This document shows, in pieces, positions 7,788-58,100 of a DNA stretch of 64,000 bases (the first letter of the stretch is position 1; every line of letters starts with the position of its first letter). The translations under genes were made by a program, and so were the position numbers. The notes beneath the pieces are model-generated. The model saw only the letters and a program-made list of their open reading frames with translations. It ran no database searches and had not been told where the DNA came from. The stretch spans positions 470,462-534,461 of the forward strand of contig CAWINE010000028.1 in assembly GCA_963837315.1 (NCBI GenBank). Direction: 5' to 3'. Origin of the DNA: an uncultured Chloroflexia bacterium (GTDB lineage: Bacteria > Chloroflexota > Chloroflexia > QHBQ01 > JADMIH01).

Positions 7788-8492
7788 ATGGTTAATCCGC
7801 AATCCGCAATTGGACCGTCCGCAATCGGCAATCCGCAATACGGGGTCCCCTCCGGGGCGGACCGTCCGCAATCCGCAATCCGTCTAGGGGTGCTGGTATC
7901 GGGCGGAGGCACCAATTTCCAGGCTATCCTGGACGCCATCGGGCGGAGAGAGCTTGACGCCGAAGTTGCGCTGGTGATCTGTAACCATAAAGAGGCATTT
8001 GCCGTCACGAGAGCCGAGCAGGCAGGAGTGCCGGTAGAGGTCCATACGCAAAAGGAGTACGGTTCGAGAGAGGCGCACCAGAAAGCCATCGCGGACAGCC
8101 TCGACAGGGCGCAAATTGACCTGGTGGTGTGTGCGGGTTGGGATAGGGTCTTTACTCACGAATTTGTGGAGAGGTTCCTGGGGCGTAACATCAACGTCCA
8201 CCCCGCTTTGCTTCCCTCCTTCGCAGGTGGCCTTCACGCGATCAGGGACGCGCTGGAATATGGTGTGAAGGTGACGGGCTGCACGGTCCATTTCGTCACG
8301 CACGACCTGGACGCAGGCCCTATAATATTGCAGGCGGCAGTGCCGGTCCTGCAGGATGATATAGAAGAGACGCTCGCTGCGCGAATACATCTAGAGGAAC
8401 ACCGGCTGCTGGTGGAGGCAATCAGGCTCTACGGCGGCCAACAGTTGCGAATAGAAGGGCGTAGGGTAAGAATAACGAGTTATGAGTTATAA
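7788..8492 (+). CDS. purN: phosphoribosylglycinamide formyltransferase
   Basis: The conserved core starts at RLGVLVSGGGTNFQAIL and includes VCAGWDRV and NVHPALLP. The start is uncertain, because the only canonical in-frame starts (7773 TTG, 7788 ATG) read through CCGCAAT repeats. Confidence 0.85.
   Translation: MVNPQSAIGPSAIGNPQYGVPSGADRPQSAIRLGVLVSGGGTNFQAILDAIGRRELDAEVALVICNHKEAFAVTRAEQAGVPVEVHTQKEYGSREAHQKAIADSLDRAQIDLVVCAGWDRVFTHEFVERFLGRNINVHPALLPSFAGGLHAIRDALEYGVKVTGCTVHFVTHDLDAGPIILQAAVPVLQDDIEETLAARIHLEEHRLLVEAIRLYGGQQLRIEGRRVRITSYEL
7795..7881. repeat. CCGCAAT heptamer-derived repeats at the purN 5' end
   Basis: The region reads aatccgcaatccgcaattggaccgtccgcaatcggcaatccgcaata ... 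gaccgtccgcaatccgcaatccg. The same heptamer occurs at 4466-4484 (reverse complement), 36962-36999 and 37855-37900. Confidence 0.8.
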
Positions 8493-8518
8493 GTTACCCA
8501 GAACCAACTCATAACTCG
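8476..8518. repeat. heptamer-arm hairpin (GAGTTAT units) overlapping the purN stop
   Basis: cgagttatgagtt (8476-8488) pairs with aactcataactcg (8506-8518). The purN stop codon (8490-8492) lies in the loop. Confidence 0.7.
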
Positions 8519-9084: not shown

Positions 9085-9089
9085 GGAGA

Positions 9090-9236
9090 CCAAGTTGTCA
9101 GTTGTCAGTTGTCAGTAGACGGACGACCGACAACCGACTAAGGCTGATAGCTGAACGCTACGGTCTACTGACAATAGTTCGCTTCGCTCATCAACTGACA
9201 ACTGACAACTGACAACTTGGTCACAAACTGACAACT
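9090..9236. repeat. nested heptamer-arm hairpins (GTTGTCA / TGACAAC runs) between mglB and mglA
   Basis: ccaagttgtcagttgtcagttgtcagtagac (9090-9120) pairs with gtctactgacaa (9163-9174) and with caactgacaactgacaactgacaacttgg (9192-9220). The element fills the mglB-mglA spacer. Confidence 0.85.
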
Positions 9237-9873: not shown

Positions 9874-10059
9874 TTGCTTGCCGCAGATGGAGTTCGCGGT
9901 CAGTTCGCGCCCATAGGGTACCTTCTCATGAGCGCAGACTTACCCAGAGATTATCGTAGCGCTGCGAACTGAGCAGAAGGATCAACCGGGAAATAAGAAC
10001 AGCACGGACAAGGTCACGGACCCAACCTGGATAAAACGTAATAACTCCCAATAAACTCT

Positions 10060-10270
10060 GTGCTCTCCATGATCTCTGAGCTCTCTCCAATTCAAACCCA
10101 TTAAAAACTTCGTGACCTTCGTCGGTCAAACCCATAAAAACCTTCGTGATCTTCGTGTCCTTCGTGCTCTTCGTGATTCAAACAATAAAGACCTTCGTGA
10201 TCTTTGTGCCTTTGTGGTTCAAACCGTAAAATCCTTGGCGTCTTGGCGTTGAAAAACGGTCGCTTCCCAG
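10060..10270. repeat. modular repeat array: TTCAAACC-N-ATAAAAAC-type separators alternating with runs of CTTCGTG / CTTTGTG / CTTGGCG / CTCTGTG 7-9-mers
   Basis: Four separators are caattcaaacccattaaaaa, ggtcaaacccataaaaac, gattcaaacaataaagac and ggttcaaaccgtaaaatc. Each is followed by 2-5 tandem short units. The array is homologous in reverse complement to 36255-36520. Confidence 0.85.
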
Positions 10271-10338
10271 CGCGAATTGCCCACCCCTCGCATCTAATGT
10301 ACAATGCAACCTGACACTACGACCGAGGAGACATACGG

Positions 10339-11997
10339 ATGCAGGAGAAACAGGCAAACAGAGCTATCAACGCGATTATCAGCGTATCAGACCCCACGAA
10401 CCTCGAGATTCTGGGCAAAGCCCTCAGTGAGATGGGCGCGAATATCTACGCAACGGGCGGCACCAAAGCGCGCCTGCAGTCGGTTGGGGTGGACGCCCAT
10501 TCCATCAGCGACCTTACCGGCTTTCCGGAAATCCTGGGCGGGCGCGTCAAGACCCTGCACCCGGGCGTCCATTCGGGCATCCTGGTCAAGCGCAACGACC
10601 CGGACCAGATGGCCCAGCTTGCGGAGCACGGCCTCAGCACAATTGAGCTTGTAGCATGCAACCTCTATCCCTTCGCAAAGACGATCGCGAAGGAGGGTGT
10701 CACGTTGGAGGAGGCGGTCGAGCAGATAGACATCGGCGGGCCCACTATGATACGCGCAGCCGCCAAGAACTTCACCTCTGTGGTAGTGCTCTCGGACCCC
10801 GCCGACTACGCAGCCGTAATGGCCGAGTGGCGCGACCGGGGCGATCTGAGCCAGGAGACACGACAAGCCCTGGCAGCCAAAGCCTTCCGCCACGTGTCGG
10901 AGTATGATGCGCTGATCGCGGAATACCTGGGCGGAATGCGGAATGGGGAATTCGGAATTCGGAATAAAGACCAACCGGGCAGCATTCCGAATTCCGAATT
11001 CCCCATTCCGCATTCAGAGGAGTTGCCGAATAGGATTACGCTCGATTTGAATAGGGTGCAAGCCCTCAGGTATGGCGAGAACCCTCACCAATCGGGGGCC
11101 CTTTACAGCGACAACTTGCCGGTGACGGGTGCAACCCTGGTGGGATCGCTCAAGCAGTTGCAGGGGCCCGAGCTGTCGTACAACAATCTGATGGACGCGG
11201 ACGCTGCGCTGGCCCTTGTACGCGACTATACAATGCCCGCTGTGGCAATTATCAAGCACGCGGGACCTTGCGGTGTGGCTTGCGGGAGCGACGGCGACGA
11301 CCTGGCGGATGTGTTCGGTATGGCGCTGGCTTCCGATCCTGTATCGGCGTTCGGAGGGATCGTGGGCATCAACAGGCCCGTGGATGGTAGGCTGGCCGAG
11401 CAGATAGGCAAAACCCGCTTCGATCTGCTAATAGCTCCCTCCTTCGATGAAGAAGCCATCGACAGGCTCGCCCGCAAGAAAAACCTCCGCTTGCTGGCCG
11501 TGCCTGACGACAATGTCAGCCGCCGCGATGACGATTTCGCGAGCAAGCTGAGTTTCCGGCAGGTGAGCGGCGGCTTCCTCGTGCAGACACGAGACGCTGT
11601 GAATTACGAAATCCTCCTGGAGCCGGCCACTCTGCGCCATCCCACACTCGAAGAGATAGCCGACCTCGTCTTCGCCTGGAGGGCCGTGCGGCACGTCCGT
11701 TCCAATGCTATCGTGTTCGCCCGTAAGCTGGCCACCGTAGGCATCGGCGGCGGCCAGACCAGCCGCGTCAATTCGGTAAAGATTGCAGCCGAAAAGGCAG
11801 GCGACCGCGCCAGGGGCGCAGTAATGGCCTCAGACGCCTTTTTCCCTTTCCCCGACGGAGTTGAGGTGGCGGCAGCAGCAGGCGTCACCGCCGTGATACA
11901 GCCGGGAGGCTCGGTCAACGACGACGCCGTCATAGAGGCCGCCGACACGGCCGGCATTGCGATGGTCTTTACGAAGAGAAGGCATTTCAGGCATTAG
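10339..11997 (+). CDS. purH: bifunctional AICAR formyltransferase / IMP cyclohydrolase
   Basis: 552 aa with an MGS-like N-domain (ISVSDPTNL...GGRVKTLHPGVHSGIL, IDIGGPTMIRAAAKN) and an AICARFT domain (LRYGENPHQ, ELSYNNLMDADAA, VIQPGGSVNDD...FTKRRHFRH). SD GAGGAG precedes the ATG. Confidence 0.95.
   Translation: MQEKQANRAINAIISVSDPTNLEILGKALSEMGANIYATGGTKARLQSVGVDAHSISDLTGFPEILGGRVKTLHPGVHSGILVKRNDPDQMAQLAEHGLSTIELVACNLYPFAKTIAKEGVTLEEAVEQIDIGGPTMIRAAAKNFTSVVVLSDPADYAAVMAEWRDRGDLSQETRQALAAKAFRHVSEYDALIAEYLGGMRNGEFGIRNKDQPGSIPNSEFPIPHSEELPNRITLDLNRVQALRYGENPHQSGALYSDNLPVTGATLVGSLKQLQGPELSYNNLMDADAALALVRDYTMPAVAIIKHAGPCGVACGSDGDDLADVFGMALASDPVSAFGGIVGINRPVDGRLAEQIGKTRFDLLIAPSFDEEAIDRLARKKNLRLLAVPDDNVSRRDDDFASKLSFRQVSGGFLVQTRDAVNYEILLEPATLRHPTLEEIADLVFAWRAVRHVRSNAIVFARKLATVGIGGGQTSRVNSVKIAAEKAGDRARGAVMASDAFFPFPDGVEVAAAAGVTAVIQPGGSVNDDAVIEAADTAGIAMVFTKRRHFRH
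10934..11015. repeat. perfect 32-bp-stem / 18-nt-loop heptamer-arm hairpin lying in frame inside purH
   Basis: Arm 10934-10965 is gaatgcggaatggggaattcggaattcggaat. Arm 10984-11015 is its exact reverse complement. The element translates as MRNGEFGIRNKDQPGSIPNSEFPIPHS in the inter-domain linker. Confidence 0.9.
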
Positions 11998-13137: not shown

Positions 13138-14542
13138 ATGGTCAAAGGCGATGGCGGCGCGATCATTGAGACCGGTGCAACAGAGGCCATGCTCGATCGC
13201 CTGTCGGACGCAGGCATTCGTAGCGTCCTTGCGGAGCGTATCGGTGGCCTGGGCGACAGCGCCGGCCTCGTGGTCGGCGTGCTGGGGCCGCATTACCGGA
13301 GCGTCATCGCATTCGGCCATAGGAGCGAGCGCGACCTACGACCGTTAGATGGCGACACCGCTTTCGAGATCGGTTCAATCACCAAGGTCTTCACGGCGCT
13401 GCTGCTTGCCGATATGGTTCAGCGGGGAGAGGTCGCCCTTGCGGACCCGGTGGCGAAATATCTCCCCACAGGCATGGAGCTCCCTGAACCGAGCGGCCGC
13501 TCGATTACCCTTCTGGACCTTGTCACCCATACCGCCGGTTTGCCGTTCATGACCGGCGAGCCGGCAACGTTTACCGATCCTGATGCCGTTAAAACCTGGG
13601 CGGCCTCGCTTCATGAGGTCCTCGCCCGTATAGAGATCCCACGACGCATCGGTGTTGACTGGGAGTACTCGAACATCGGTTACTGGCTACTGGGGGAGGC
13701 TCTCTCGTTTCGAGCCGGAATAAGTTATGAAAAACTCTTGCGCGCTCAAGTCCTCAATCCACTGAGGCTGAAGAGCACAGCCCTTACTCTCTCCCCATGG
13801 CTGGAGGCAAAGCTCGCCGTCGGCCACGATGCGAGCCTGCGGCCGGCTGTGGCCATCTCCGACGTTCCCATGTTCGCCGTGATGCCTGCTGCCGGTTCCC
13901 TCGTTTCGACGGCCAATGACCTGTTGATGTTCCTGGCCTTAGCGATGGGCTTCAAACGTTCGCCCCTCGCGCCCACGATGGCTGCGATGCTGGGCTCGCG
14001 CCGTCCTACGCAGGAGCCGAGTGTCGAGCAAGCATTGGGTTGGCTGGTGATGAGCAAGGGCGATGACAGGCTGATTTACCACGACGGTGGCACGTTCGGA
14101 TTTGCCAGCTCCGTAGCATGGGACCCAAAGAAGCAGGTCGGCGTCGTCGCGCTCTCGAACCTGGTGGGAGACGTGAGCGATATTACCCGGCATCTATTGC
14201 GGCCGGAAACCCCGTTGGCACGACCGATTACGACCATGCACGTGGAGATCGAGCTTGATTTCGTCCGTGCTCGCTGCCTATGCCGGCCGGTATGAAGCGC
14301 AGGGCGAGGGGGTCTTCGCGGTCGCTCTTGAGGGCAATTTCCTGACAATTCAAATGCCCCCGGACTGGGGCCTTCCCAGGTTGCGCCTTCGCCCGGAGGG
14401 GCAATACGATTTTTTCACAGCGGAGCTTCCACTTCGGGCCACATTCGAAACCGGCAGCGACGGGCGAGCCAACGGACTGCTCATATACCCTCCACGAGGA
14501 CAATCTGCGGTCCACGCGGACCGGCTACCTTCGGCTATGTGA
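13138..14542 (+). pseudogene. serine hydrolase, S12 family (class C beta-lactamase / R61 DD-peptidase-like), frameshifted near the C-terminal domain
   Basis: Motifs are SxxK in FEIGSITKVF, YxN in YSNIGY, and HDGG in place of the K/HTG box. The body ORF 13138-14295 ends in out-of-frame residues. The expected C-terminal beta-sandwich (LAAYAGRYEAQGEGVFAVALEGNFLTIQ...) continues in ORF 14255-14542. The frameshift is at about 14260. Confidence 0.75.
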
Positions 14543-21420: not shown

Positions 21421-22516
21421 AGCCCCTGGTTTGAGTGTTCGCCTCAAACTCACCCTCAGCTACGCCGGCTTCCTCATGCTCGCAGGTGCCTTGCTACTCG
21501 CCGTCGTGTGGGTGTTCCTGCTGCGTTACGTACCCGACCGTCCGATCATCGCACTCGGGTTCGTTCCCAACCGTTCCGACCTCCTGGACGCTTTCGCTCC
21601 GAGGGCAGCCGCAATGGTGGCGTTCTTGCTGGTGTTCGGTCTCCTGGGAGGGTGGCTTCTCGCCGGCCGCATGCTCGCCCCCTGACTCGCATCACAGACG
21701 CCACACGCATGGCCGCGAACGGATCGCTTTCCCACCGGATCGAGTTGGAAGGCCGTCAGGACGAGTTCCGCGAACTCGCCGACAGCTTTGATGCCATGCT
21801 CGCACGGCTCGAAGCCCATGTCGCCGAACAGCAGAGATTCGCAGCCAACGCCTCCCACGAGCTGCGCACCCCGCTGGCGATCACGCAGACACTTCTTGAC
21901 GTGGCCCGCAACGATCCGAACCGTGACACCGGCGAACTCGTCGAGCGCCTCCACGCCGTCAACACCCGAGCGATCGACCTCACTGAAGCATTGCTCCTGC
22001 TCAGCCGCGCCGACCAACGGTCCTTCACCCGAGAACACGTCGACCTGTCCCTCATAGCGGAAGAAGCCACTGAAACGCTCCTCCCTCTCGCAGAAAAACG
22101 CGGCCTCACCATCGAGACCTCCGGCGACATAACCCCCACCATCGGCTCGCACGCGCTACTGCTGCAGATGACCACGAACCTCGTGCAGAACGCGATCGTC
22201 CACAATCTGCCTACATGGCACCGTGTGGGTCACGACCAGCATTCACCCCAAGCGTGTGGTGCTCACTGTCGAGAACACCGGTGAGAAGCTCACCCCACAT
22301 TTAGTTTCCACGCTTGTCGAGCCGTTTCAACGCGGCACCAAGCGAATACGCACCACACCCGCAAGCGGGTACCCGGCAGGTGTCGGCCTCGGCCTGGCAA
22401 TCGTCAAAAGCATCACCCAGGCACACGACGGGACCCTCACTCTCACCCCACGGGCCGCTGGGGGGCTCCGCGTCACGGTGCAGCTACCCGCAGCGCCACC
22501 GCACGCTGGCAGATGA
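21413..22516 (+). pseudogene. vanS: sensor histidine kinase VanS-type, two frameshifts
   Basis: A GTG start overlaps the vanR stop. The TM1-loop-TM2 region ends at a stop at 21685, in a C5 run. HAMP, the H-box (ANASHELRTPL) and the N-box (NLVQNAIVHN) continue in the frame of ORF 21508-22284. The G-boxes (VENTGEKL..GLGLAIVKSI) lie in the frame of ORF 22223-22516. Confidence 0.8.
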
Positions 22517-22678
22517 CGATCAAGGGAAGGCATCTGATGAGCTCGAAGCGGCCAGGCAGTGCCGCCGCCAACAGATTTGTGCTACGATGAGGTGAAAACT
22601 CTCACTTTCTTAGCACGACTTTGCACATTTCCAACCGAATAGGCTATGGCTAGAACCCAACAACAGACGGAGTAGGCG

Positions 22679-23428: not shown

Positions 23429-25314
23429 ATGGCCGAAAACGATAATCCGATTTTACTCCCCTATCCGCGCTCGCTCACTCGCTCGGCTGGGCAGCATGTC
23501 TTACGGCCTCGCCGGCGCGTTATACTGGAAGGCGCTATGGCGCAGGAGCTAATGCCCGCCGGACGGCGACTGCAAGCCCAACTGGGCAAGTTGGCCGGTC
23601 TGGATTGGGAGATAGCCGCAACGCCGCTGGGCCCGGCCGAAGAGATCGGCGCGGTGTTGCGTCTGGCGCCGGGCACCGCCGACCACGAGCAGGGCTACAG
23701 GCTGACCATTTCGCCCGAGCAGATACTGATCGAGGCGCCGGAGCCGTCCGGAATTTTCTACGGTACCTGCACGCTGGTACAGCTTGTGGCACAATATGGC
23801 CGGACGCTGCCTGCCGTGCAGATAGCGGACCGGCCCGATTTTCCGGCCCGTGGGGTCATGCTAGACATCAGCCGCGACAAAGTGCCGCAGATGGACACGC
23901 TTTACAGCCTGGTCGATATGCTGGCCGGCTGGAAAATCAACCAGCTGCAGCTCTACACCGAGCACACCTTCGCCTATCGCCGGCACCCCGACGTCTGGGC
24001 CGAGGCTTCGCCGGTGACCGGCGACGAGATCCTGGCACTCGACGCCTTCTGCCGCGAGCGCTATATCGAGCTGGTGCCCAATCAGAACACCTTCGGCCAT
24101 ATGGAGCGCTGGCTGAACCATGCCCCGCTATGCGGTCGCTGGCCGAAACCCACGAAGAGTTTCGGTGCCATGGGGAGGTAAGATGCACGGGCCGTTCAGC
24201 CTCTGCCCGCTGCGATCCCGGCAGCCTGCAGCTCGTGCGCAGCCTGTTCGACGAGTTGCTGCCGCATTTCAGCAGCAAGCAGTTCAACGTCGGCTGCGAC
24301 GAAACCTTCGACCTGGGGCAGGGCCGCAGCAAGGACGAGTGCGAGCGTCGCGGCACCGAGCGCGTCTACCTCGACTATCTGCTACAGGTCCACAACGAAG
24401 TCGCGGAGCGCGGCTACACCATGCAGTTCTGGGGCGACATCATCGTGCAGCACCCCGACCTGGTCCCCGAGCTGCCCAGGGAAGCATCGCGCTGGAGTGG
24501 GGCTACGAGGCCGACCACCCGTTCGAGGAGCACGGCGAGCAGTTCGCCGCGCTCGGGCATCGCCTTCTACGTCTGCCCCGGCACCTCGTCCTGGTGCTCT
24601 ATCGCCGGGCGCACCGACAACGCCATCGGCAACCTGCGCAACGCCGCCGAGAGCGGGCTGAAGAACGGCGCCGTCGGCTATCTGAACACCGACTGGGGCG
24701 ACATGGGCCACTGGCAGGTGCTCCCGATCAGCTTCCTGGGCTTTGCTGCCGGTGCCGCCTACTCGTGGGCGCTCGAGGCAAACCGGACGATGGACGTGCC
24801 GGCTGTCGTTAGCCTGCATGCCTTCCGCGACCCGACCGGCGCCATGGGCCGCGTCGCCTACGACCTGGGCAACGTCTACAAGTCGGCAGGCGTCCTGATG
24901 CCCAACTCGTCCCTACTTTTCTGGACGTTGCAACGCGATTTCGCCCAGGAGATGGCGACGCGAACGGGCGGGACGGTCGATTACGCTTCCCCGCTCGCTG
25001 CCATAGACAAGGCCATGGCGCCCATCGCCACGGCGCGCATGCAGCGCCCCGACGCGGCCCTGATCCTTGCCGAGTTCGAGAACACCGCCCGTATGCTGCG
25101 CCACGCCTGCCGCCGCGGCCAGCTTATCTACGACGATAGGGAGCGCGCCGATCCGGCCGCCACCAAACAGGCGCTGGACGACGACCTCCGCGACATAATC
25201 TGCGAGTACGAGCGGATCTGGTTAGCGCGCAACCGGCCCGGTGGCCTGCGCGAGAGCGTCGGGCGTCTCCAGTCTGCTCGGCTCGACTACAGACCAGTGA
25301 CCGGTGACCAGTGA
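23429..25314 (+). pseudogene. GH20 beta-N-acetylhexosaminidase-like glycoside hydrolase, multiply frameshifted
   Basis: The N-terminal and catalytic barrel start is in ORF 23429-24181 (RPDFPARGVMLDISRDKVP...INQLQLYTEHTF...NQNTFGHMERW). The sequence then alternates between three frames (LAETHEEF; PWGGKMHGPFSLCP; CDPGSLQLVRSLFDELLPHFSSKQFNVGCDETFDLG; IALEWGYEADHPFEEHGEQFAA; GIAFYVCPGTSSW...). There are at least five frame changes between about 24125 and 24560. Confidence 0.75.
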
Positions 25315-25380
25315 CTAGGGACTAGGGGCTAGTGACCAGGCATGCGCGGTCACTAGCCCCTAGCCCCTAGTCACTGGTCA
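25305..25380. repeat. heptamer-arm hairpin (CCCCTAG / GTGACCA units) overlapping the GH20 stop
   Basis: tgaccagtgactagggactaggggctagtgacc (25305-25337) pairs with gtcactagcccctagcccctagtcactggtca (25349-25380). Confidence 0.85.
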
Positions 25381-26849: not shown

Positions 26850-27686
26850 CTAGCTGCCTGGCGGCCCCTGCCGTATACGTTGGCGCATCTGCGCCAGCAA
26901 GTCGCGCCCGCCGTTGATCCATTCCAGCCACCAGGTAACGCCAGCCTCGGCATAGGCCGCTACTTTAGCGGCGGAAGCCGGATCGTTCCCGCTTGTTTCG
27001 CCAACCGCACTCACATCGAACGGCTTATCGGCGTCGCGCAGTTTCGAGATATAAGGCAAAATCTCGCGGTAGTCCTGCGGGGTGAGATATTTCACGCCAC
27101 CCTCAGCTGCGACCCCATCCCAGCCTGCGCTGCGGCGAAACGGCTTTTTGTGCGGCCAGACCCCACCGACCCAGATTGGGATGCGTGGCTGCTGAACTGG
27201 GCGCGGCAAAAACTGGGCGTTCTTCACTTGATAGTGCGCGCCGTCAAAGCTGAACGGCTCGCCGCGCCAAAGTCCAGCGATGATAGCTAGCGCTTCGTCC
27301 AGCAATTCGCCGTGGGTTTTATCGTCGGCTGGTTCGCCAAACGCGCTGAAGTCGCCATGCCAGTCGCCGCCGATGCCTACGCTCAGGATCAGTCGCCCGT
27401 TAGAAAGATGGTCGATCGTGGTCGCCTGCCGCGCCACGGTCCACGGTCGGCGGCGCGGCAGCGGTGTGATCATTGTGCCGAGCCTGACACGGCTGGTAGC
27501 CAACGCAATCGCCGCTAGCATAACCCACGGGTCACCAACCGGCTGGTTTTGCGGATCTGTCCAGAGAATGTTGTCCGACAGGAAAAAACCATCCCACCCT
27601 GCTTCCTCAGCCTCGCGCGCCAAATCAGCTACCAATTTCGGGTCAGAGGATGTGCCAAAATTAGGCATATACAAGGCATATTTCAT
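26850..27686 (-). CDS. LLM-class flavin/F420-dependent oxidoreductase (paralog of 11987-12805)
   Basis: 278 aa with AGWDGFFLSD, RVRLGTMITPLPRRRPW, TIDHLSNGRLILSVGIG and IPIWVGG. Confidence 0.8.
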   Translation of the reverse strand: MKYALYMPNFGTSSDPKLVADLAREAEEAGWDGFFLSDNILWTDPQNQPVGDPWVMLAAIALATSRVRLGTMITPLPRRRPWTVARQATTIDHLSNGRLILSVGIGGDWHGDFSAFGEPADDKTHGELLDEALAIIAGLWRGEPFSFDGAHYQVKNAQFLPRPVQQPRIPIWVGGVWPHKKPFRRSAGWDGVAAEGGVKYLTPQDYREILPYISKLRDADKPFDVSAVGETSGNDPASAAKVAAYAEAGVTWWLEWINGGRDLLAQMRQRIRQGPPGS

Positions 27687-30084: not shown

Positions 30085-31764
30085 CTATTCGCGGAATATA
30101 CTCCCCGCCACTTCCTCTGAACTCGCAGCTTCTTCGTACTGTATAGCTTCCTGATGGTTGTTACTGTAAGCTTTCACCGCTTTGACGAAATCGCGGAAGA
30201 GGGGGTGGGGGCGCGTGGGGCGGCTCTTCAGCTCGGGGTGGAACTGCGAGGCCACGAACCAGGGGTGGTTGCGTAGCTCGATGATCTCGACAAGCCTGCC
30301 GTCGGGCGAGAGGCCGGAGACGATCAGGCCCGCTTCGTGCATGCGCTCGCGGTAAGCGTTATTGAACTCGAAGCGATGGCGGTGGCGCTCGTAGACGACC
30401 GATTCGCCATAGGCCCTGGCGGCTTTGGTGCCCGGCACCAGGTTGCAAGGATAGAGGCCCAGGCGCATCGTGCCGCCCATGTCGGCGATGTCGCGCTGGT
30501 CGGGCATGATGTCGATCACGGGGTCCGAGCAGCGCTGGTCGATCTCGGTGGAGATGGCGTCCGGCAGGCCGAGCACGCTGCGGGCGAACTCGATCACCGC
30601 CATCTGCATCCCATAGCAGAGGCCCAGGTAGGGGATGTTGATGCTCGCGGGCGTATTGCGCGGCCAGGATCTTGCCGTGCACGCCCCGGTCGCCGAAGCC
30701 GCCCGGCACGAGGATGCCGTCCGACGCCCGTCAGCATCTCTTCGGGGTCGCCTTGCTCCAATGCCTCGGTGTTGACCCAGCGGATCTCGACTCTGGAGTT
30801 GTTGTACGCGCCGGCGTGCTGCAACGCCTCGGCCACGCTCAGATAGGCGTCGTGCAGCTCGGTATATTTGCCGCAGAGGGCGACTGTGACGGTCTCGCGA
30901 GCCTGGTCCATGCGCGCCACGGTCTGCTCGCCAGCCTGAGCAGGTCGGGCGCGTGGCCGCCCAGGTTCAGCTTCTCGACGATATATTCGCCCAGCCCGCG
31001 CGTCTTCGAGCAAGCAGCGGCACTTGGTAGATATTGGGCACGGTGGGCAAGGGGATCACCGCGCGCGGCTCCACGTCGCAGAAGATGGCGATCTTGGCGA
31101 TGATGTCTTCCTCTACCGGCGAATCGGAGCGGCAGAGGATAACGTCGGGGTTGATGCCGATAGAGCGCAGCTCTTTGACGCAGTGCTGGGTCGGCTTGGT
31201 CTTCAGCTCGCTGGTGGCGGCGATTTACGGCAGGAGGGTCAGGTGGATATAGAGGACGTTTTCGCGCCCGGCGTCGCGGCGCATCTGGCGGATGGCTTCG
31301 AGGAACGGCAGGCCCTCGATGTCGCCCACCGTGCCGCCGACTTCGACTATCACCACGTCGGGAGCGCCTGTGCGGGCCACGGCGGCGATGCGCGACTTGA
31401 TCTCGTTGGTGATATGGGGGATGACCTGGATGGTGCCGCCCAGGAAATCGCCGCGCCGCTCGCGCTCGATCACCGACCGGTAGATGCGGCCGGTGGTGAC
31501 GTTTGATGCCTGGGTGAGGTTTTCGTCAATGAAGCGCTCGTAGTGGCCCAGGTCGAGGTCGGTCTCCGCGCCATCGTCGGTCACGAATACCTCGCCGTGC
31601 TGGTAGGGCGACATGGTGCCGGGGTCGACATTGATATAGGGGTCAAGCTTCTGGAGAGAGACGGTGATGCCCCGGCTCTTCAGCACGCGCCCGATGGAGG
31701 CAACGGTGATACCCTTGCCCACGCTCGAGGCCACGCCGCCCGTCACGAATATGTACTTCGCCAT
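30085..31764 (-). pseudogene. pyrG: CTP synthase, one in-frame TAA plus about five frame changes
   Basis: The N-terminal synthetase domain is intact ([19 protein letters not shown] ... IHLTLLP). A TAA at 31225-31227 replaces the conserved Tyr of LVPY. Recognisable segments then fall in alternating frames: [27 protein letters not shown]..., [60 protein letters not shown], and [17 protein letters not shown]...[10 protein letters not shown]...FHPE. Confidence 0.85.
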
Positions 31765-34253: not shown

Positions 34254-34298
34254 GAGTGGTGGATGGGACGAGTTCGTGTCGCAAAACCCTTTCCCCTT

Positions 34299-34397
34299 GT
34301 CATTCCTCGCTTCGCTCGGAATCACTATGGGCAGCAGTATGCCTGGAATTCCAAGCGAATATCTCGCATAGTGATTCCGAGCGAAGCGAGGAATGAC
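34299..34397. repeat. perfect 31-bp inverted repeat with a 37-nt loop (MITE/REP-like)
   Basis: gtcattcctcgcttcgctcggaatcactatg (34299-34329) pairs with catagtgattccgagcgaagcgaggaatgac (34367-34397). The termini TTGTCATTCC resemble those at 59326-59466. Confidence 0.85.
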
Positions 34398-34473
34398 ACT
34401 TCTTATCTTGGTTGCTGTGCTTGCAACGATTTATAGGATGCACCACTAAGCGTGGCCGACTCCATCGACGAGT

Positions 34474-36247
34474 TCACCCCTCAAACGCCACCCGTACCAC
34501 TTTCGCCCGAATCTCTTCCTCCATCTCCGCAATCTCTCTTTTCAAGCGCTGAATCACCTCTTCGATCGCCACTATTGCTGTTTGAGTTGAATCTCGCCGC
34601 TTTAGCTCGGCCCCGCCCTGCGCCAGCGAGCGGTCGCCAAGTGTCAGCCGCAAAGGTATACCTATGAGGTCGGCGTCATTGAACTTGACGCCCGCCGAGC
34701 CTTCGCGGTCGTCGTAAAGCACCTCGATCCCGACCGCCTGCATATCGCTGTAGAGTTTCTCGGCTGCCATGCGCGCAGGCCCGTCATCCTTTGCTAGCGA
34801 AACGAGATGCACCTGGTAGGGCGCAATGGTGATAGGCCACACCAGCCCCCGCTCGTCGTTGTGCGCCTCGGCGACACAGGCCAGCAGCCGTCCAACCCCG
34901 ATTCCATAGGAGCCCATTATTATGCTCTTCTGCTTGCCATCGTTGTCCAGGTAGACGGCACCCAGTGCATCGCTGTATCGAGTGCCAAGCTTGAAGATGT
35001 TGCCTGCTTCTACTCCGCCCGAAAGGTGCAGAGGCGCAGCCGCAGCTCGGGCAAGCATCGCCCTCTTTGGCCGCGGCGATGTCCGCCACCAGGTCAGCTT
35101 TGTAGTCTCGCCCGTAATTCACGTTGATGTAGTGGTACCCGACCTCGTTGGCCCCGGCCACCAGGTTGGGCGACTGAGCCACGGCGTCGTCAACCACAAC
35201 CAGCGCATCTTTCACGCCGATGGGCGAGCCGTAGCCTGGCTGGGCACCTCTCGAAGTTATCTCCTCCTCCTGGGCAGGGCGCAGCTCCATGGCTTTCACG
35301 ACGTTCGCCAGCTTGGTCTCGTTCACGTCCATATCGCCGCGCACCACGGCGAACACGAATTGTTCCCTCTCGGTCTCGCCTTCTCGTAACTTCGCCACCA
35401 TGAACACCGCCTTGGCAGTCTTCGAGGCCGGGATATCGAGGAACCGGGCCAGGGCGTCAATGGTGGTCGACGCCAGGCGTGGCGACCTTCTCCATAGGCT
35501 TCGGCTCCTCTGTGCGGCGCGACCGGCTTGCGAAATAGTGCCACCTGCCTGTTGGCCGAATATCCGCAGTTGTCGCACAGCACCAGCGTATCTTCGCCGA
35601 TCGGGGTCAGGTACATGAACTCGTGCGCCAGGCTCCCGCCCATCATCCCGACATCCGACTTCACGGCGATCACCGGCAGGGCGCAGCGGTTGAAGATATT
35701 GAAATACGCCTGGTAATGCGCCCGGTACTGCTTATCGAGCCCTTCCAGATCGGCGTCCAGGCTGTAGCTATCGAGCATAGTGAACTCGCGGGCGCGTATC
35801 AGCCCGGCGCGCGGCCTGGGGTCGTCGCGCCACTTGGTCTGGATGTGGTAGATAAGCTGGGGCAATTGCCTGTACGATCTTATCTCTTTGCGGGCCAGGT
35901 CGGTCACGACCTCTTCGTGGGTCATCGCCAGCGCCATATCGCGCCCCGTTTTCTCCACAAAGCGCCCAAGCTCCGGCCCAATCGAGTACCAGCGTCCCGT
36001 CTCCTTCCAGAGATCGGCAGGGTGCACGACAGGCATAGTCATCTCCTGCCCGCCCAGCGCGTTGATCTCCTCGCGCATAATATTCTCGATCTTGGTCATC
36101 GAGCGCCTGGCCAAGGGGCAAATAGCTGAAAATGCCCGCCGCCAATTGCCTGACAAATCCCGCCCTCAACAGCAGCCTGTGGCTCGCCACCTCCGCCTCC
36201 GACGGCGCCTCGCGCAAGGTCTGGCTGAATAACTGGCTCATTCTCAT
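34474..36247 (-). pseudogene. proS: proline--tRNA ligase (bacterial type with INS editing domain), at least four frameshifts
   Basis: [46 protein letters not shown] runs from 36247. The sequence then passes through the frame of ORF 35323-36156 (motifs 1-2: ...[23 protein letters not shown]...), a short EEPKPMEKVATPGVD segment, the frame of ORF 34784-35578 (editing domain), and the frame of ORF 34474-35058 (GNIFKLGTRYS...MGSYGIGVGRLL...anticodon-binding domain). Confidence 0.85.
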
Positions 36248-36254
36248 TGGTTAC

Positions 36255-36520
36255 GTTTCTACTTCTTACTTCTTACTTCTTCAACGCCAAGACGCCAAGA
36301 CGCCAAGGTTTTTAACGGTTTGAACCACAAAGACACGAAGAGCACAAAGTTCACGAAGGGTATTATGGGTTTGAATTGCAGCGATCACGGAGTACTCAGA
36401 GATCACAGAGGATATTATGGTTCAACCCCCATAAATAATCTTGGCGAGCCTTGGCGTTCTTGGCGTCTTCGAAAAACCGTCGTCCGTCTACCGACAACTG
36501 ACAACTGACAACTGACAACT
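36255..36520. repeat. modular repeat array, reverse-complement homolog of 10060-10270, lying between the T-box terminator and the proS start
   Basis: On the minus strand it reads cagttgtcag x4, cgccaag units, ggttgaaccataata, CTCTGTGATCTCTGAG..., caattcaaacccataatac, CTTCGTG/CTTTGTG units, ggttcaaaccgttaaaaac, CTTGGCGT x3, and agtaaga x3. Confidence 0.85.
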
Positions 36521-36953: not shown

Positions 36954-37659
36954 ATGCTCTCCGACCAATCCGCAATCCGCAATCCGCAATCCGCAATCCA
37001 TATCGTTCCTTCAATCCTCTCAGCCGACTTCGCCCGGCTGGGCGAGCAGGTGCAGGAGGCTGTGAAGGCCGGGGCGGGGCGTATCCAGGTGGACGTCATG
37101 GACGGCCATTACGTGCCCAACATCACGGTCGGTCCGGTTGTGCTCGCTGCAATCCGCCCTTATTGCTCCGTGCCCATAGAGTGCCACTTGATGATCGAGC
37201 ACCCTGAGGCTTTTATCCATGATTTCGCCGAAGCGGGAGCCGACATCATCATCGTCCACGTCGAAACGGCTCCGCACCTGCACCGCGTTGTCCAGCAAAT
37301 CCGCGCCGAGGGCAAAGGCGTGGGGGTGGCTCTCGAATCCATCCACGCCGCTGGTGGACCTCGAAGAAATCCTGGAATATATCGATATGGCCCTCGTCAT
37401 GACCGTCAACCCCGGCTTCGGCGGGCAGGAATTCATCTATTCGATGCTGCCCAAAATCAGCCGCCTTCGCGCAACTATCCAGGAGCGCGGCCTCCACTGC
37501 GACATCGAAGTGGATGGCGGCATCCATGAAGGCACAATCCGCCAGGCAGTCCAGGCGGGCGCGAACCTGCTGGTCGCGGGGTCCGCCGTCTATGATGCGC
37601 CCGACGGTGTAGAAGCCGCGATGCAGCGGCTCCGCTCCGCTATAGAGGAACCCAAATGA
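36954..37659 (+). pseudogene. rpe: ribulose-phosphate 3-epimerase, one frameshift
   Basis: [40 protein letters not shown] and IIIVHVE are in ORF 36954-37529. [32 protein letters not shown]...DIEVDGGI...LVAGSAVY are in ORF 37219-37659. The junction is at about 37335. The N-terminus reads through (CCGCAAT)x4. Confidence 0.85.
36962..36999. repeat. (CCGCAAT)x4 run inside the annotated rpe 5' end
   Basis: ccgaccaatccgcaatccgcaatccgcaatccgcaatcc. Confidence 0.85.
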
Positions 37660-39514
37660 CCACACTCAAGCATGCCGTCAGCACGGCGGCTGAAACGCTA
37701 GCCACCACACTTCCCCACTGGGACATGGACACCATCTTCCCCGGCCTACAATCGCCCGAATTCGAGGCAGGCTTCCGCCATGTCACCGAATCCATAGACG
37801 GCCTCACCGAGACTATTCGATCGCCATAACGTGCGCTTGCTAACTGCCGAAGAACAATCCGCAATCCGCCATCGTCCTTCGTCCTCGGAATCCGCAATTG
37901 ATGAGGTAATAACGCGGTTCAACACCGTCCTTGAAGAGTACCGCACTATCAGCGCCTATATCCAGTGCATACTCAGTACCGACACCCGCGACAGCGTGGC
38001 CCTTCACCGCGCAAGCGAGATGCAGGCTCTAGGGCGTGCGCATCTCCCAGCTTGGCACGCGGTGGACGGCCTGGATAGGCTCGCTTGACGTTGAAGTCCT
38101 CATCGAGCGCTCTCAATTGGCCCGTGACCATGCCTTCAACCTGCGCAAAACCCACCGGCGCGCACGACACCTCATGTCCCCTGCCGAGGAGAACCTGGCC
38201 TCCGAGCTCTACCTTAGCGGCGGCAGCGGCTGGGAAAAGCTGCACATGAGCGTGTCGTCACAGCTTGCTGTTACCGTCGAAATGCCCGGCGGAGAGAAGC
38301 GCGAGCTGCCCATGAGCGCCGTACGCAATCTCGCTTTCGACACCGACCGCGAGGTACGCCGGCGCGCCTACGAAGCCGAATTGGAAGGCTGGAAGAGGGC
38401 CGCCGTGCCTCTTGCCGCCGCCCTCAACGGTGTGAAAGGCGAGGTCAACACCCTCTCGCGCCACCGCCAGTGGGACTCGGCCCTCGATGAAGCCATCTTC
38501 GACAGCAATATCGACCGCCAGACCCTCGACGCCATGATGGAGGCCGCACGCGAATCGTTCCCCGACTTTCGCCGCTATATGCACACTCGCGCCCGCATGA
38601 TGGGCATCGAGCGCCTCGCCTGGTACGATATCTTCGCGCCTGTAGAAGGCAGCACCAGCGCCTGGAACTATTCGGACGCCAGGGCCTTCATCGTCGAGCA
38701 GTTCGGCAGTTATTCAAGCAAGCTGGCGGGCCTTGCCGATCGCGCCTTCCGCGATAACTGGGTTGACGCCGAGCCGCGTGTCGGCAAGCGCGACGGTGCA
38801 TACTGCACGCCCATCCGCAACGACGAATCTCGCGTCTTCACCAACTACAAGTCGAGCTACGGAGGCGTCAGCACTCTCGCCCACGAACTGGGGCATGCCT
38901 ACCATAATATGGTCAAGGCCGGCCGCACCACCCTCCAGAAGAGCACCCCCATGACGCTGGCCGAGACCGCCAGCATCTTCTGCGAGACCATCATCCGCCA
39001 CGCCGCCATGAAGGATGCTCCGCGCGAAGAGCAGGTCGCGATACTGGCCCAATCGATCCAGAATAGCTGCCAGGTAGTCGTTGACATAACCAGCCGCTTC
39101 CTCTTCGAGAGCCGCCTCTTCGAGAAGCGCCGCGAGCGCGAGCTGACCGTGGACGAGCTTTGCGACCTCATGCTCGACGCCCAGAAAGAGACCTACGGCG
39201 ACGGCCTGGACCAGACCAAGCTCCACCCATATATGTGGGCCGTCAAGCCCCACTATTACCGGACCGGCCTCTCCTTCTACAATTTCCCCTACATGTTCGG
39301 TCTCCTCTTCGGCCTCGGCCTCTACGCCCAGTACCGCCAGGACCCCGACACCTTCCGCCGCAGCTACGACGACCTCCTCTCCTCCACAGGCATGGACGAC
39401 GCTGCCACCCTGGCCGCCCGCTTCGGCATCGACGTCCGCACCCCCGCCTTCTGGCGCTCCAGCCTCGACATCATTAGAGCTGATATAGAGGAGTTCGAGC
39501 GATTGGTGGGGTAG
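37656..39514 (+). pseudogene. pepF: M3B oligoendopeptidase F family metallopeptidase, at least two frameshifts
   Basis: ATG 37656 overlaps the rpe stop (ATGA), giving [40 protein letters not shown]... up to a stop at about 37828. The continuation is in ORF 37831-38088 and then in ORF 38036-39514, which carries the zinc site TLAHELGHAYH and the rest of the M3 fold. Confidence 0.8.
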
Positions 39515-41476: not shown

Positions 41477-41479
41477 GAT

Positions 41480-41531
41480 CCATAAATGAAAAAGGCGATG
41501 AGAGGCCTCTCATCGCCTTTTTCATTTATGG
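41480..41531. terminator. perfect 26-bp-arm palindrome acting as a bidirectional terminator
   Basis: ccataaatgaaaaaggcgatgagagg pairs with cctctcatcgcctttttcatttatgg. It sits between the convergent FmdB-like and methyltransferase genes. Confidence 0.7.
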
Positions 41532-41536
41532 ACCAT

Positions 41537-44147: not shown

Positions 44148-44220
44148 GCGGGCGAGTGGTTAGTGGCCAGTGGCCAGTGGCTAGTCGTTCTAACCACTAA
44201 CCACTAACCACTCGTCCCGC
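44148..44220. repeat. heptamer-arm hairpin (GTGGCCA / GTGGTTA units) after gatB
   Basis: gcgggcgagtggttagtggccagtggccagtggctag pairs with ctaaccactaaccactaaccactcgtcccgc. Confidence 0.85.
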
Positions 44221-45525: not shown

Positions 45526-45540
45526 TCCGGCTTTCGTTGA

Positions 45541-45583
45541 AGCATAAAAAATGGGACCGCTCAGCGGTCCCATTTTTTATGCT
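45541..45583. terminator. bidirectional hairpin terminator between gdh and the desaturase
   Basis: agcataaaaaatgggaccgc-tca-gcggtcccattttttatgct, with A and T runs on both sides. Confidence 0.75.
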
Positions 45584-46651
45584 TTAGCCTTCATGGGCAG
45601 CGACGAATTTGCGCCGCCGCAGAGGCGCTGAAGTTTCGTGCAGGCATTGCAATATCTCTACAAACGACTGGCGAACGCCTGTTACATGGTAGGAAACGTC
45701 ATGTTCGGCGCAGAAACGCCGGGTCATTTCGGCGGCGTCCCGAAGCTTGTTGCGGGGCATGCCTGGAAAGAGATGGTGGGCGGCCTGGTGGTTCAATCCA
45801 CCATAAAGGAAATCAATTAGGGGTGTGGAGCGGACGCTGCGGGCGGTGAGCACCTGCTTGCGCAAGAAGTCCATCTGCTCGTCATCTTCGCCCACCACGA
45901 GCATACCTTTGTGGTTGGGAGCGAATACTGCCCCTATGAACAGCCCCAGCAGCCCTCGGTGCACCAAAATGAAGGTCAATCCGAGCCACGGCCCGAGCAG
46001 CAAAGGTAAACCCACGTAATAGAGGACGAAGTGCGCCCAGAGCATAGCAGTATCGGGTAGGTGCCACCTGTAGCGCTTGCGGATCATAAAGATGACCGAT
46101 GAAATCTGCATGCTGTAGGTGGTGAAGGTGAGCGCCGGGAAGAAGAGGTAAGCCTGGTAAGCGGTGAAAATACGCGCCAACCCGGTCTTGCGCAAAGCCT
46201 GCTCTTCAGAGAATGCCATAAAAGGGATCGTTATGTCGGGGTCCATCCCATCGTGGTTGGGGTTGGCGTGGTGGGCGTTATGCTTGTCGTTCCACCAGCC
46301 AAGACTCATCCCCACCAGCAGATTGGCCATCAGCATGCCCACCCAGTTGTTCACGCGGCTTGAGCTGAACACCTGCTTATGGCCGAAATCGTGTGCCAGA
46401 AAGCCCAACTGAGCGCACACAAAGGCCAGGTACGGCGCAACCAGCAAGCGCAGCCAGCCGTCCAGCAGGAAGAGCACAACCACCCCGGCAGCGAACAGGC
46501 CCAATGTATAGGCCATCTTGATTCCGTAATATCTGCCCTGTGGGTTGAGCAGCCCGGCATCTCTGACGCGGGCTTTCAACGCCCCGTAAAGATTCTTGTT
46601 TATCGACGTGGAATCTTGCGCGCGCCTACCTTGTAATTCGATTGCAGCCAT
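45584..46651 (-). CDS. membrane fatty-acid (acyl-lipid/acyl-CoA) desaturase
   Basis: 355 aa with three His boxes (HDFGH, HNAHHANPN, QAAHHLFP) and predicted TM segments between them. Confidence 0.85.
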   Translation of the reverse strand: MAAIELQGRRAQDSTSINKNLYGALKARVRDAGLLNPQGRYYGIKMAYTLGLFAAGVVVLFLLDGWLRLLVAPYLAFVCAQLGFLAHDFGHKQVFSSSRVNNWVGMLMANLLVGMSLGWWNDKHNAHHANPNHDGMDPDITIPFMAFSEEQALRKTGLARIFTAYQAYLFFPALTFTTYSMQISSVIFMIRKRYRWHLPDTAMLWAHFVLYYVGLPLLLGPWLGLTFILVHRGLLGLFIGAVFAPNHKGMLVVGEDDEQMDFLRKQVLTARSVRSTPLIDFLYGGLNHQAAHHLFPGMPRNKLRDAAEMTRRFCAEHDVSYHVTGVRQSFVEILQCLHETSAPLRRRKFVAAHEG

Positions 46652-46933: not shown

Positions 46934-47015
46934 TAGGGGCAGACCCACGTGTCTGCCCTGCTCGGATAGAGAATTCTGCAACCCCGCCAGGGCAGACACG
47001 TGGGTCTGCCCCTAG
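46934..47015. repeat. inverted repeat of a 27-bp GC-rich element (TAGGGGCAGACCCACGTGTCTGCCCTG)
   Basis: The arm 46934-46960 has its exact reverse complement at 46988-47015. Each arm is itself a near-palindrome around CACGTG. Confidence 0.85.
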
Positions 47016-47232
47016 ACCTTTAATCTGAACGCATACTGGAACGACACAACAGGGCGGATGCAACGTCGAGAACCTGCTCAGAATGACAAGGGCGTAGGAC
47101 GAAGGACGGAGATGGCGCTCCAGGCACCGACTTTGCATCACCCTGCAAGTGACAGGGGCAGGGCAGATCTATCCGGCGTGCGGCGCTATGATATAATCTC
47201 CTTTACCACCTACAACGATGAGGAGGCCACCC

Positions 47233-48508: not shown

Positions 48509-48572
48509 CCGGTGCCCAACAAAAGAAAGATGGAGCGCATCAGCGCTCCATCTTTCTTTTGTTGGGCACCGG
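48509..48572. terminator. perfect 30-bp-stem hairpin, bidirectional terminator
   Basis: ccggtgcccaacaaaagaaagatggagcgc-atca-gcgctccatctttcttttgttgggcaccgg. Confidence 0.7.
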
Positions 48573-48974: not shown

Positions 48975-49255
48975 TGGTTTTGGGGACACCCCAAGCCCCG
49001 GCAGGGAGATCCCTGCACCCCCTTTTGTCGCCAACTTGTTAGTAATGGAGGTATTTTGGGGACACCCCAAGCCCCGGCAGGGAGCCCCTGCACCCCCTCT
49101 CCACGATAGCCTGTTAGAGAATAGAGGGAGTATTGGGGACACCCCAAGCCCCGGCAGGGGAGCGCCCCTGCACTGCTTCTTCACCATGGCCTGTTAGAGA
49201 ACAAGAGATACTGGGGACGCCCAAGCCCTGGCAGGGACCTCCAGGCACCCCTTCC
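48975..49255. repeat. array of four GGGGACACCCC...CAGGG-N-CCCTG...CACCCC elements (period ~75-78 bp)
   Basis: Copies lie at about 48982-49022, 49056-49096, 49134-49177 and 49213-49250 (the last degenerate). The family and orientation match 6339-6530. Confidence 0.85.
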
Positions 49256-50396: not shown

Positions 50397-50469
50397 GTAC
50401 CGTTAGCAACAATAAGAGCAAAGGGGCCGCGCAGACGACCCCTTTGCTCTTATTGTTGCTAACGGTACG
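50397..50469. terminator. perfect 30-bp-stem hairpin (12-nt loop)
   Basis: ggtaccgttagcaacaataagagcaaagggg-ccgcgcagacga-cccctttgctcttattgttgctaacggtac. It lies downstream of the propeller gene and upstream of the disordered-protein genes. Confidence 0.65.
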
Positions 50470-56631: not shown

Positions 56632-56666
56632 AAAGAAATCCCCGCCGCGGCGGGGATTTCTTTTTA
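56630..56666. terminator. bidirectional terminator between the kinase and trkA
   Basis: aaaaagaaatccccgcc-gc-ggcggggatttcttttt. Confidence 0.75.
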
Positions 56667-57413: not shown

Positions 57414-57423
57414 CCACTTCGTC

Positions 57424-58095: not shown

Positions 58096-58100
58096 TCCGT

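Follow-up and report, generated by a model that had tools for sequence, protein, structure and literature searches.

The 64,000-nucleotide stretch of contig CAWINE010000028.1 from an uncultured Chloroflexia bacterium that is analysed here (termed the window, always at its full length) carries the gene purH, and inside this gene lies an 82-nt hairpin made of heptamer repeats. The gene occupies positions 10339 to 11997 of the forward strand, on which all purH features described below are also read. Its open reading frame (ORF), 552 codons plus a stop, is uninterrupted. The coding sequence is intact and bifunctional according to the ORF list, to Pfam matches with MGS (residues 25-136) and AICARFT_IMPCHas (residues 141-486), and to PDB matches with PurH proteins, among them the M. 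tuberculosis enzyme (3zzm; E = 7e-122).

PDB alignments resolve the protein into two blocks. Residues 12-197 align with residues 7-193 of human ATIC (1p4r_A); the N-terminal block stops at approximately residue 197 of the query (human residue 193), and the C-terminal block restarts at approximately residue 240. Because the alignment blocks break between these points, the insert that carries the hairpin is placed where the IMP cyclohydrolase part of the enzyme meets the AICAR transformylase part. Specifically, the IMP cyclohydrolase half comprises residues 1-197 (10339-10929), with its end marked by the PDB alignment and by the last helix of this half in an AlphaFold2 model, and the AICAR transformylase half comprises residues 231-552 (11029-11994), as supported by Pfam, the PDB alignments and the same model. 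The clade-variable interdomain linker with the hairpin (residues 198-230; 10930-11028) translates as ...YLGGMRNGEFGIRNKDQPGSIPNSEFPIPHSEELPNR... and was delimited by columns ~204-250 of a protein alignment (A1), by a break in homology to the relative L001 and by the confidence of the model. The preliminary description of this DNA had placed the element in frame at the PurH domain linker with the ORF unbroken, and the ORF list, Pfam and the PDB alignments agree.

The AlphaFold2 model, computed from a 31-sequence alignment, has a mean predicted local distance difference test (pLDDT) score of 80. Residues 201-227 fall below 50 and form no secondary structure, and they lie after the last helix of the N-terminal half (residues 172-202) and before the strand with which the C-terminal half opens (residues 237-244). 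In nucleotides this segment spans 10939-11019, which is nearly coincident with the hairpin. The hairpin-encoded insert is thus predicted to be a disordered loop or tether between the PurH halves. An intein or a translational bypass can be ruled out, since the segment has only ~30 codons and no in-frame stop, such that neither excision nor hopping is needed.

The two arms of the hairpin are 32 nt each and are separated by 18 nt. The left arm (10934-10965; GAATGCGGAATGGGGAATTCGGAATTCGGAAT) reads as GAATGCG, GAATGGG, two copies of GAATTCG and a final GAAT, as recognized by a repeat search, Tandem Repeats Finder (TRF) and a pattern count. The loop (10966-10983; AAAGACCAACCGGGCAGC), bounded by the repeat search and by comparison with the relative L086, is translated as KDQPGS. 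In the repeat search the right arm (10984-11015) is the exact reverse complement of the left, with 32 of 32 positions paired. TRF reports period-7 arrays of 5.0 copies at 10931-10965 and 4.6 copies at 10984-11015, and the element therefore qualifies as a heptamer simple sequence repeat, in which 7-nt units stand head to tail in at least three copies. A triple-unit pattern, GGAATNNGGAATNNGGAAT, occurs eight times in the window against an expectation of 0.02, and the longest run of identical GGAATTC units amounts to 2.7 consecutive units per arm. The unit variants GC, GG, TC and TC of one arm are mirrored exactly in the other, which implies that the entire arm was duplicated in one piece or that pairing has been preserved. 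These results bear out the original account of a perfect hairpin of GGAATNN heptamers with an 18-nt loop. RNA folding, which that account had proposed as a check, yields a structure of -63.9 kcal/mol (z = -9.6; 0 of 200 shuffles equally stable), and the corresponding DNA fold has a value of -42.2 kcal/mol (z = -10.2).

Two conventional roles for such a structure were considered and rejected. A terminator scan found no terminator-like site at 10934-11015, where the sequence after the stem reads AGAGGAG and forms no T-run tail, which argues against an intrinsic terminator. ZTP riboswitches are frequently found at purH, but no Rfam family, that riboswitch included, matches anywhere in the window at the gathering score, and a known structured RNA is likewise rejected.

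The linker was compared among PurH homologs by measuring the spacing between a YD motif and a GENPHQ motif. Of the 46 distant homologs (50-59% identity), 42 have a spacing of 29-30 residues, and in all 68 clade relatives (~68-91% identity) it amounts to 36-66 residues, with a value of 55 in the window. The window linker is ~25 residues longer than that of canonical PurH, which is close to the ~30 extra residues proposed earlier. However, every one of the 68 clade relatives has some variable insert at the same site, and the alignment does not reveal a linker that is constant apart from a single insertion.

Linker DNA was read for seven relatives, and in all seven the insert consists of short tandem repeats, which are heptamers in six cases and whose units differ from locus to locus. 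L001 carries GGAGGAC, GAAGGAC and two copies of GGATCAG; L084 carries GGACGAC, GAAGGCA and CAAAATC, with approximately four copies of each; L083 carries CACCTAA and CACCCAT; L085 has three copies of GGTACT plus G+C-rich sequence; L114 has four copies of GGACGAA; L115 has three copies of GGGGTCA; and L086 has a GGAATNN hairpin as in the window. Peptides that recur in the protein set match translations of such arrays (DDGRRTTDD, EGRRTKDE, TQNSKLKTQNF and QPTTDNRQPTTDN). Moreover, linker length differs inside clusters of 90% identity (534 versus 542 aa; 542, 558 and 562 aa). Variation of copy number and sequence among close relatives is a defining trait of the heptamer-repeat class, and the sequences at hand indicate that the PurH tether is a clade-wide hotspot of heptamer arrays. 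Short-read contigs break at these arrays: L086 begins within the purH hairpin, and the protein fragment P0134, from a 967-bp contig, ends within the QPTTDNRQPTTDN repeat, probably at the contig end. Metagenome assemblies thus probably under-represent heptamer arrays or call them incorrectly.

Contig L086 provides an independent copy of the hairpin. This 1,190-bp contig comes from a different JGI sample, 3300035169, and its C-terminal PurH sequence is 97% identical to that of the window. It starts inside the orthologous hairpin (GGAATGGGGACTGGGGAATTCGGAAT - AAAGACCAACCGGCCCCAGAGGGGACCCCGTAC - ATTCCGAATTCCGGATTCCCCGTTCCGCATTC), which is again in frame and is translated as NGDWGIRNKDQPAPEGTPYIPNSGFPVPHSEGLP. 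The L086 loop is 15 nt longer than the window loop, with the first 13 nt the same in both. Its arms contain four mismatches among 26 visible pairs (one of them a G-U wobble in RNA), none of which is compensated, and 53 of 58 arm positions are identical to those of the window. Because this independent contig has the hairpin with imperfect arms and a longer loop, its sequence argues that the element is neither an artefact nor brand new, nor the assembly chimera that the preliminary description had considered. In addition, a public protein encoded on a 557,579-bp contig (NCBI, ENA), P0253, matches the window PurH at every residue, those of the hairpin peptide among them. Three wider searches led no further. 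A metagenome contig scan with the right-flank pattern AGGATTNCGCTNGATTTGAA returned 26 loci, none of which encodes PurH by tblastn; a genome contig scan with the whole PurH returned only genes of 43-51% identity, was dominated by the generic peptide pattern DAFFPFPD and supplied neither close relatives nor a firm taxonomy; and a 107-aa piece of the linker, used in a protein search, matched nothing but short and distantly related fragments.

The relatives also bracket the age of the hairpin. Divergence at fourfold-degenerate sites is 0.27 between the window and L086 and 0.42-0.43 from L001 to either of them, which makes L001 the outgroup. Although L001 is 91% identical, its linker holds no GGAATNN unit and no hairpin: homology with the window ends at TACCTGGG and restarts at TGCCG, and alignment revealed no convincing similarity beyond these flanks, so that residual linker homology was rejected. 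Since L086 has the hairpin and L001 lacks it, the hairpin originated after the L001 split and before the window and L086 diverged, and the comparison points to a lineage-specific form of moderate age. The original proposal of a recent insertion is thus too strong, although the outgroup does lack the element. The five complete linkers of relatives that we folded contain no comparable hairpin. Their RNA z-scores (+0.8, -0.2, -2.2, +2.6 and -1.6, versus -9.6 for the window) run from +2.6 to -2.2 and therefore do not describe a conserved linker feature; the truncated L086 copy has z = -3.2. Neither these values nor the terminator scan lends backing to the strong effect on translation, mRNA stability or replication that the preliminary description expected.

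A change in the size of a linker array by one unit is apparent in another pair of relatives. L114 (JGI 3300018910), which encodes an intact PurH of 534 aa, and L113 (ENA ERZ27286117, a megahit k141 contig) match exactly over 3,113 + 2,538 nt and differ only in the presence of four copies of GGACGAA in L114 versus three in L113. The 7-nt loss in L113 splits purH into ORFs of 216 aa and 324 aa. The former consists of the cyclohydrolase half followed by 12 residues read out of frame, and the latter begins at an in-frame ATG (...MPERMALGL...) located just 3′ of the purine-rich sequence GGATGAAGAG. Because these otherwise identical contigs differ by a single GGACGAA, slippage by whole units appears to occur at the PurH linker. 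In silico, adding one GGAATTC unit to the window array or removing one generates stops at residue 211 or 234. Separately expressed halves of PurH/ATIC retain their own activities. If the halves act apart in this clade as well, then a frameshift at the linker would be less damaging than elsewhere in the gene, which would help explain why a non-triplet repeat persists there.

The purH hairpin resides in a stretch of DNA in which heptamers are common. The 64 kb contain 17 exact period-7 arrays with a length of 18 nt or more, compared with 0-5 for other periods from 4 to 12, and such an excess over other unit lengths is characteristic of the heptamer-repeat class. Nearly all of these arrays lie between genes or at gene ends on a crude ORF map supported by Pfam. 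The purH hairpin is intragenic and lacks this mostly intergenic trait, which is typical of the class but not required.

Several arrays are paired as hairpins, for which no strand is assigned. Such pairs are formed by GAGTTAT and ATAACTC between purN and mglB (8476-8518; TRF and comparison with L001); by AGTTGTC and GACAACT between mglB and mglA (9088-9222; TRF, inverted-repeat search and comparison with L001); by GACCAGT and by CTAGGGG with CTAGCCC at the 3′ end of the ORF at 23605-25314 (25292-25380; TRF and inverted-repeat search); by GGCCAGT and CTAACCA between gatB and a glutamate-dehydrogenase-family (ELFV) gene (44150-44217); by CTAGGGG and CTAGCCC, with 25 of 25 positions paired, between two TrkA-domain genes (57357-57415); and by AGTTGTC and ACTGACA at another intergenic site (58013-58096; TRF and inverted-repeat search). 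The shared architecture of the purH element and the intergenic heptamer hairpins, as first described, holds for five of these by inverted-repeat search, which places them at 9088-9222, 25305-25380, 44150-44217, 57357-57413 and 58013-58082. The mglB-mglA hairpin has the same arms and a different loop in L001, where six copies of TGACGAA that are absent from the window occupy the loop (L001 5996-6037), and arrays can therefore arise inside existing hairpin loops. The unit of the purH arms was reported to recur near 58872-58925, and indeed TRF and blastn-short locate an array of this unit at 58873-58920, in which a single GGAATGC (58873-58879) is followed after a 12-nt spacer by 4.1 copies of ATTCCGC (58892-58920), with no convincing overlapping ORF.

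Tandem heptamers run through all three frames every 21 nt, and thus only stop-free units can be translated; a hairpin extends this condition to both strands. None of the purH units (GGAATTC, GGAATGC, GGAATGG) has a stop in any of the six frames, and ~50% of all heptamers share this property, whereas several of the intergenic units of the window lack it. The window also contains near-perfect or perfect intergenic inverted repeats that are not made of heptamers. They have arms of 22-33 nt and short loops (34298-34398, 41479-41532, 45540-45584, 46934-47014, 48509-48572, 50397-50468 and 56629-56666), and several have A/T-rich outer ends like those of bidirectional terminators. With so many perfect hairpins of 22-33 nt in the window, a 32/32 stem is not exceptional for this genome.

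On balance, we judge it reasonably probable that the purH element is a translated heptamer-repeat hairpin that arose by local repeat turnover and is tolerated in a permissive tether. Its source would be the genome-wide population of heptamer arrays and hairpins, which is otherwise intergenic, and the PurH tether would serve as a hotspot where arrays arise, expand, contract and replace one another. Replication slippage could build and resize the arrays, and strand-switch (fold-back) copying could have made the second arm; the exact mirroring of the unit variants suggests that a whole arm was copied at once. Such an array would persist because the tether tolerates almost any stop-free peptide, because the units present no stop in any of six frames, and because the PurH domains fold and act independently, such that an out-of-frame change would split the gene at the domain boundary and destroy no fold. 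Most likely, the host gains nothing specific from the hairpin and translates ~25-30 extra disordered residues. Pausing or RNA processing at the 32-bp stem, if there is any, would be a side effect.

Several considerations weigh against this reading. We infer both the neutrality of the hairpin and its origin by slippage and template switching, and the difference between L113 and L114 could reflect the choice of an assembler faced with a mixed population, or an assembly error. We found a single further hairpin-bearing lineage, whose contig (L086) is cut inside the left arm. Between the window and L086, 5 of 58 arm sites are different (8.6%), compared with 27% at fourfold sites (binomial P = 4e-4), and the window has no mismatch in 32 pairs. 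This slow divergence hints at selection or homogenization, which would not be predicted for a purely neutral by-product. Finally, the purN-mglB hairpin reads GAGTTAT and ATAACTC in the window and GAGTTCT and AGAACTC in L001, and because both arms have changed together (A:T to C:G), some heptamer hairpins appear to be maintained as structures.

The strongest competing explanation, which we regard as unlikely yet deserving of attention, is that the purH hairpin is itself a selected RNA or DNA structure. For example, a ribosome pause at the stem might let the cyclohydrolase half fold first. Alternatively, cleavage by RNase III, for which double-stranded RNA stems of more than ~20 bp are typical substrates, or a block to exonucleases might allow the two halves of the message to be expressed, or to decay, independently of each other. 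The perfect, highly stable stem is consistent with such roles, as are the threefold slower divergence of its arms relative to fourfold sites, the compensatory change in a heptamer hairpin of the same operon, and the abundance of other perfect intergenic hairpins in the window. However, none of the five complete linkers of relatives has the hairpin, including that of L001 at 91% identity, and the L086 copy has accumulated four uncompensated mismatches as well as a 15-nt loop insertion. The window has no Rfam match, and the stem has no terminator-like tail. In addition, the divergence of the arms (8.6%) equals ordinary coding divergence between the window and L086 (9.0%), which implies only modest constraint. 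The active maintenance proposed in the preliminary description is accordingly weakly favoured by the slow change of the arms and opposed by the uncompensated mismatches of L086. Some maintenance of the hairpin may occur, as judged from a single pairwise comparison in which selection and homogenization are not separable.

A broader and somewhat more doubtful proposal combines two ideas: that heptamer arrays at domain and gene junctions act as reversible switches between fusion and fission, and that a lineage-specific process keeps inverted arrays complementary. Slippage by one unit would toggle between a bifunctional PurH and two separately translated domain ORFs, as in L114 and L113, and a repeat-generating or homogenizing process peculiar to the lineage would explain both the perfect purH arms and the paired change at purN-mglB. 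A second junction also carries arrays. An AATCCGC array occupies the purM-purN junction of the window (7794-7882), and GCAGTGG repeats occupy that of L001 (4657-4737). These arrays precede the Pfam Formyl_trans_N match, which starts at residue 37 of the purN ORF. The gene call for L115 joins purM and purN in a single 569-aa product (gene 1), a putative fusion in an assembly that contains frameshifts and is error-prone, and the junction arrays together with this call serve as a lead only.

It is improbable that the linker is a phase-variable contingency locus, in which gain or loss of heptamers toggles purH between a fused form and a split or partly inactive one. If true, purine or ZMP (AICAR monophosphate) metabolism would be altered in subpopulations of cells. 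The unit length, which is not a multiple of three, fits this model, as do the one-unit difference that splits purH at the domain boundary in L113, the in-frame ATG after a purine-rich stretch that could start the downstream ORF, and the stops produced by a one-unit change in the window. Known contingency loci likewise carry a non-triplet repeat within an ORF, and the difference between L113 and L114, the one such case observed and in the linker of a relative, would match their frame-shifting alleles. Nevertheless, known loci have long runs of identical units, whereas 2.7 units per arm make a poor substrate for slippage. All other full-length relatives are in frame, and the single polymorphic pair may be an assembly effect. 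Furthermore, purH is a housekeeping gene and thus an atypical target of phase variation, and a frameshift at its domain boundary may split the enzyme rather than silence it.

Even less probable is the transposition of a small mobile palindromic element in frame into purH, whether of the miniature inverted-repeat transposable element, repetitive extragenic palindrome (REP) or Rickettsia palindromic element (RPE) type. RPEs are in-frame, translated insertions in metabolic genes that are compatible with the protein fold and form dispersed families of ~150 bp (PMC10969869). The purH element is likewise palindromic, in frame and translated within a housekeeping gene, at what the structural model predicts to be a fold-compatible site, and its GCGGAAT unit recurs at 58892-58920. 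However, RPEs encode a conserved peptide and are considered mobile, whereas the purH element consists of 82 nt of simple heptamers. No dispersed family is evident: blastn-short against the 883 kb searched returned only the element itself, the L086 ortholog and the array of the same unit. Since 82 is not divisible by three, the ends of the hairpin are not the edges of an in-frame insertion, and no unique termini are evident. The unrelated heptamer arrays of relatives at the same site also fit local turnover better than repeated insertions. The intergenic heptamer hairpins of the window resemble REPs and bacterial interspersed mosaic elements in being stable hairpins between operon genes. REPs, however, are conserved families that often accompany a Y1 transposase (the REP-associated, or RAYT, type), whereas the arms in the window are simple repeats of varying unit, and a scan of ~50 window ORFs found no Y1_Tnp match or other transposase and no reverse transcriptase.

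An assembly or sequencing artefact is the least credible explanation, because although the imperfect assembly includes frameshifted and truncated genes, purH itself is intact, a contig from another sample carries the orthologous in-frame hairpin with the arm identity given above, and random errors would degrade a 32/32 stem rather than create one.

The quality of the surrounding assembly is uneven. In the CTP synthase gene pyrG (30118-31764, reverse strand), a stop codon interrupts the frame at 31225-31227, a position that encodes Gln in a relative, and the frame shifts at least four times between ~31010 and 30620, with both ends ~90% identical to relatives; this pattern points to a pseudogene or to a low-quality stretch of assembly. 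A class II tRNA synthetase gene (HisRS-like) is split over two ORFs at 34477-36156. A second glutamate-dehydrogenase-family gene (47218-48333) stops at Pfam profile position 160 of 241, a luciferase-like gene (26853-27686) covers profile positions 18-175 of 314, and the match of rpe (36954-37526) ends at position 113 of 198. Furthermore, a beta-lactamase is separate from DUF3471 at 13138-14539, and a histidine-kinase fragment with only HAMP and HisKA (21508-22595) is followed by a separate small ORF. These split and truncated genes suggest either an error-prone assembly or many pseudogenes. Heptamer arrays were rejected as the cause, since neither the pyrG changes nor the HisRS-like split coincides with an array.

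Other repeats were observed in the window. In rpe, 4.9 copies of CAATCCG (36966-36999) correspond to codons 5-16 of the ORF, and the Pfam domain begins at residue 17, so that the array is either a translated N-terminal extension or part of the 5′ untranslated region; a second CAATCCG array lies ~850 nt downstream (37855-37873). Upstream of purH, the gap between mglA and purH (10045-10250) contains CTTCGTGAN 9-mers inside repeats of 34 and 51 nt, with TCAAACC(C/A)ATAAAAA spacers, and is followed by a promoter-like site at 10277-10305. Two copies of the 8-mer CTTGGCGT also lie upstream of purH, and the same motif recurs as three copies of ACGCCAAG at 36284-36307. Repeats of this gap type, including the 8-mer, are present in L001 (553-618 and 1542-1557). 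Finally, 48981-49236 holds 3.3 copies of a G+C-rich 77-nt tandem unit (81% matches) with internal GGGG and CCCC runs, which is not CRISPR-like and to which we assigned no gene.

Among described systems, the purH element most closely resembles the heptamer repeats that are over-represented in many bacteria, mostly in intergenic regions and with variation between relatives (PMC4692102, PMC4679880). Examples include the short tandemly repeated repetitive (STRR) sequences of the heterocystous cyanobacteria Calothrix and Nostoc, GGGGA(T/C)T of Nostoc, GGGAATC of Xanthomonas with its occasional inverted arrangements, and TAACTGA of Beggiatoaceae (PMC4692102, PMC4679880). The features held in common with STRR and other long simple sequence repeats are over-represented tandem 7-nt units that lie mostly between genes and near gene ends, lengths and sequences that vary among relatives, and inverted arrangements that can form stem-loops. 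Even the Xanthomonas unit GGGAATC resembles GGGGAAT of the purH hairpin. The differences are that many units coexist in the window with no single dominant one, that paired inverted arrays are a common form there, that the purH array is an in-frame part of a housekeeping gene and occupies a hotspot found across the clade, and that the lineage, which its best genome matches and its gene content place probably in the Chloroflexota, is not from the phyla covered in those papers.

A further comparison can be made with the amino-acid tandem repeats of Borgs. Units of the in-ORF repeats of Borgs are reportedly multiples of three, whereas the 7-nt purH unit shifts the frame with each copy, such that only stop-free units and compensated lengths would survive. 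Like the purH array, the Borg repeats evolve fast within ORFs and add intrinsically disordered regions to proteins (PMC9879509). Given these likenesses and differences, the purH element is best filed as an unusual heptamer repeat array, one that takes the form of a translated hairpin and occupies a hotspot shared across the clade in an interdomain tether, and not as a new kind of system.

Repeats whose units are not multiples of three are expected to be absent from essential coding sequences, and yet a whole clade keeps 7-nt arrays in purH. What seems to permit this is the location of the arrays in a disordered tether that links independently folding domains. On a practical level, such arrays break short-read contigs and yield split-gene calls that annotators may misread. 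The case illustrates how repeat turnover may create and remodel interdomain linkers, and how selfish or mutational DNA may be filtered by the need for stop-free units and compensated lengths. It also indicates that a single slippage event may be able to split a bifunctional gene at its domain boundary, which makes slippage-driven gene fission a testable lead in this clade.

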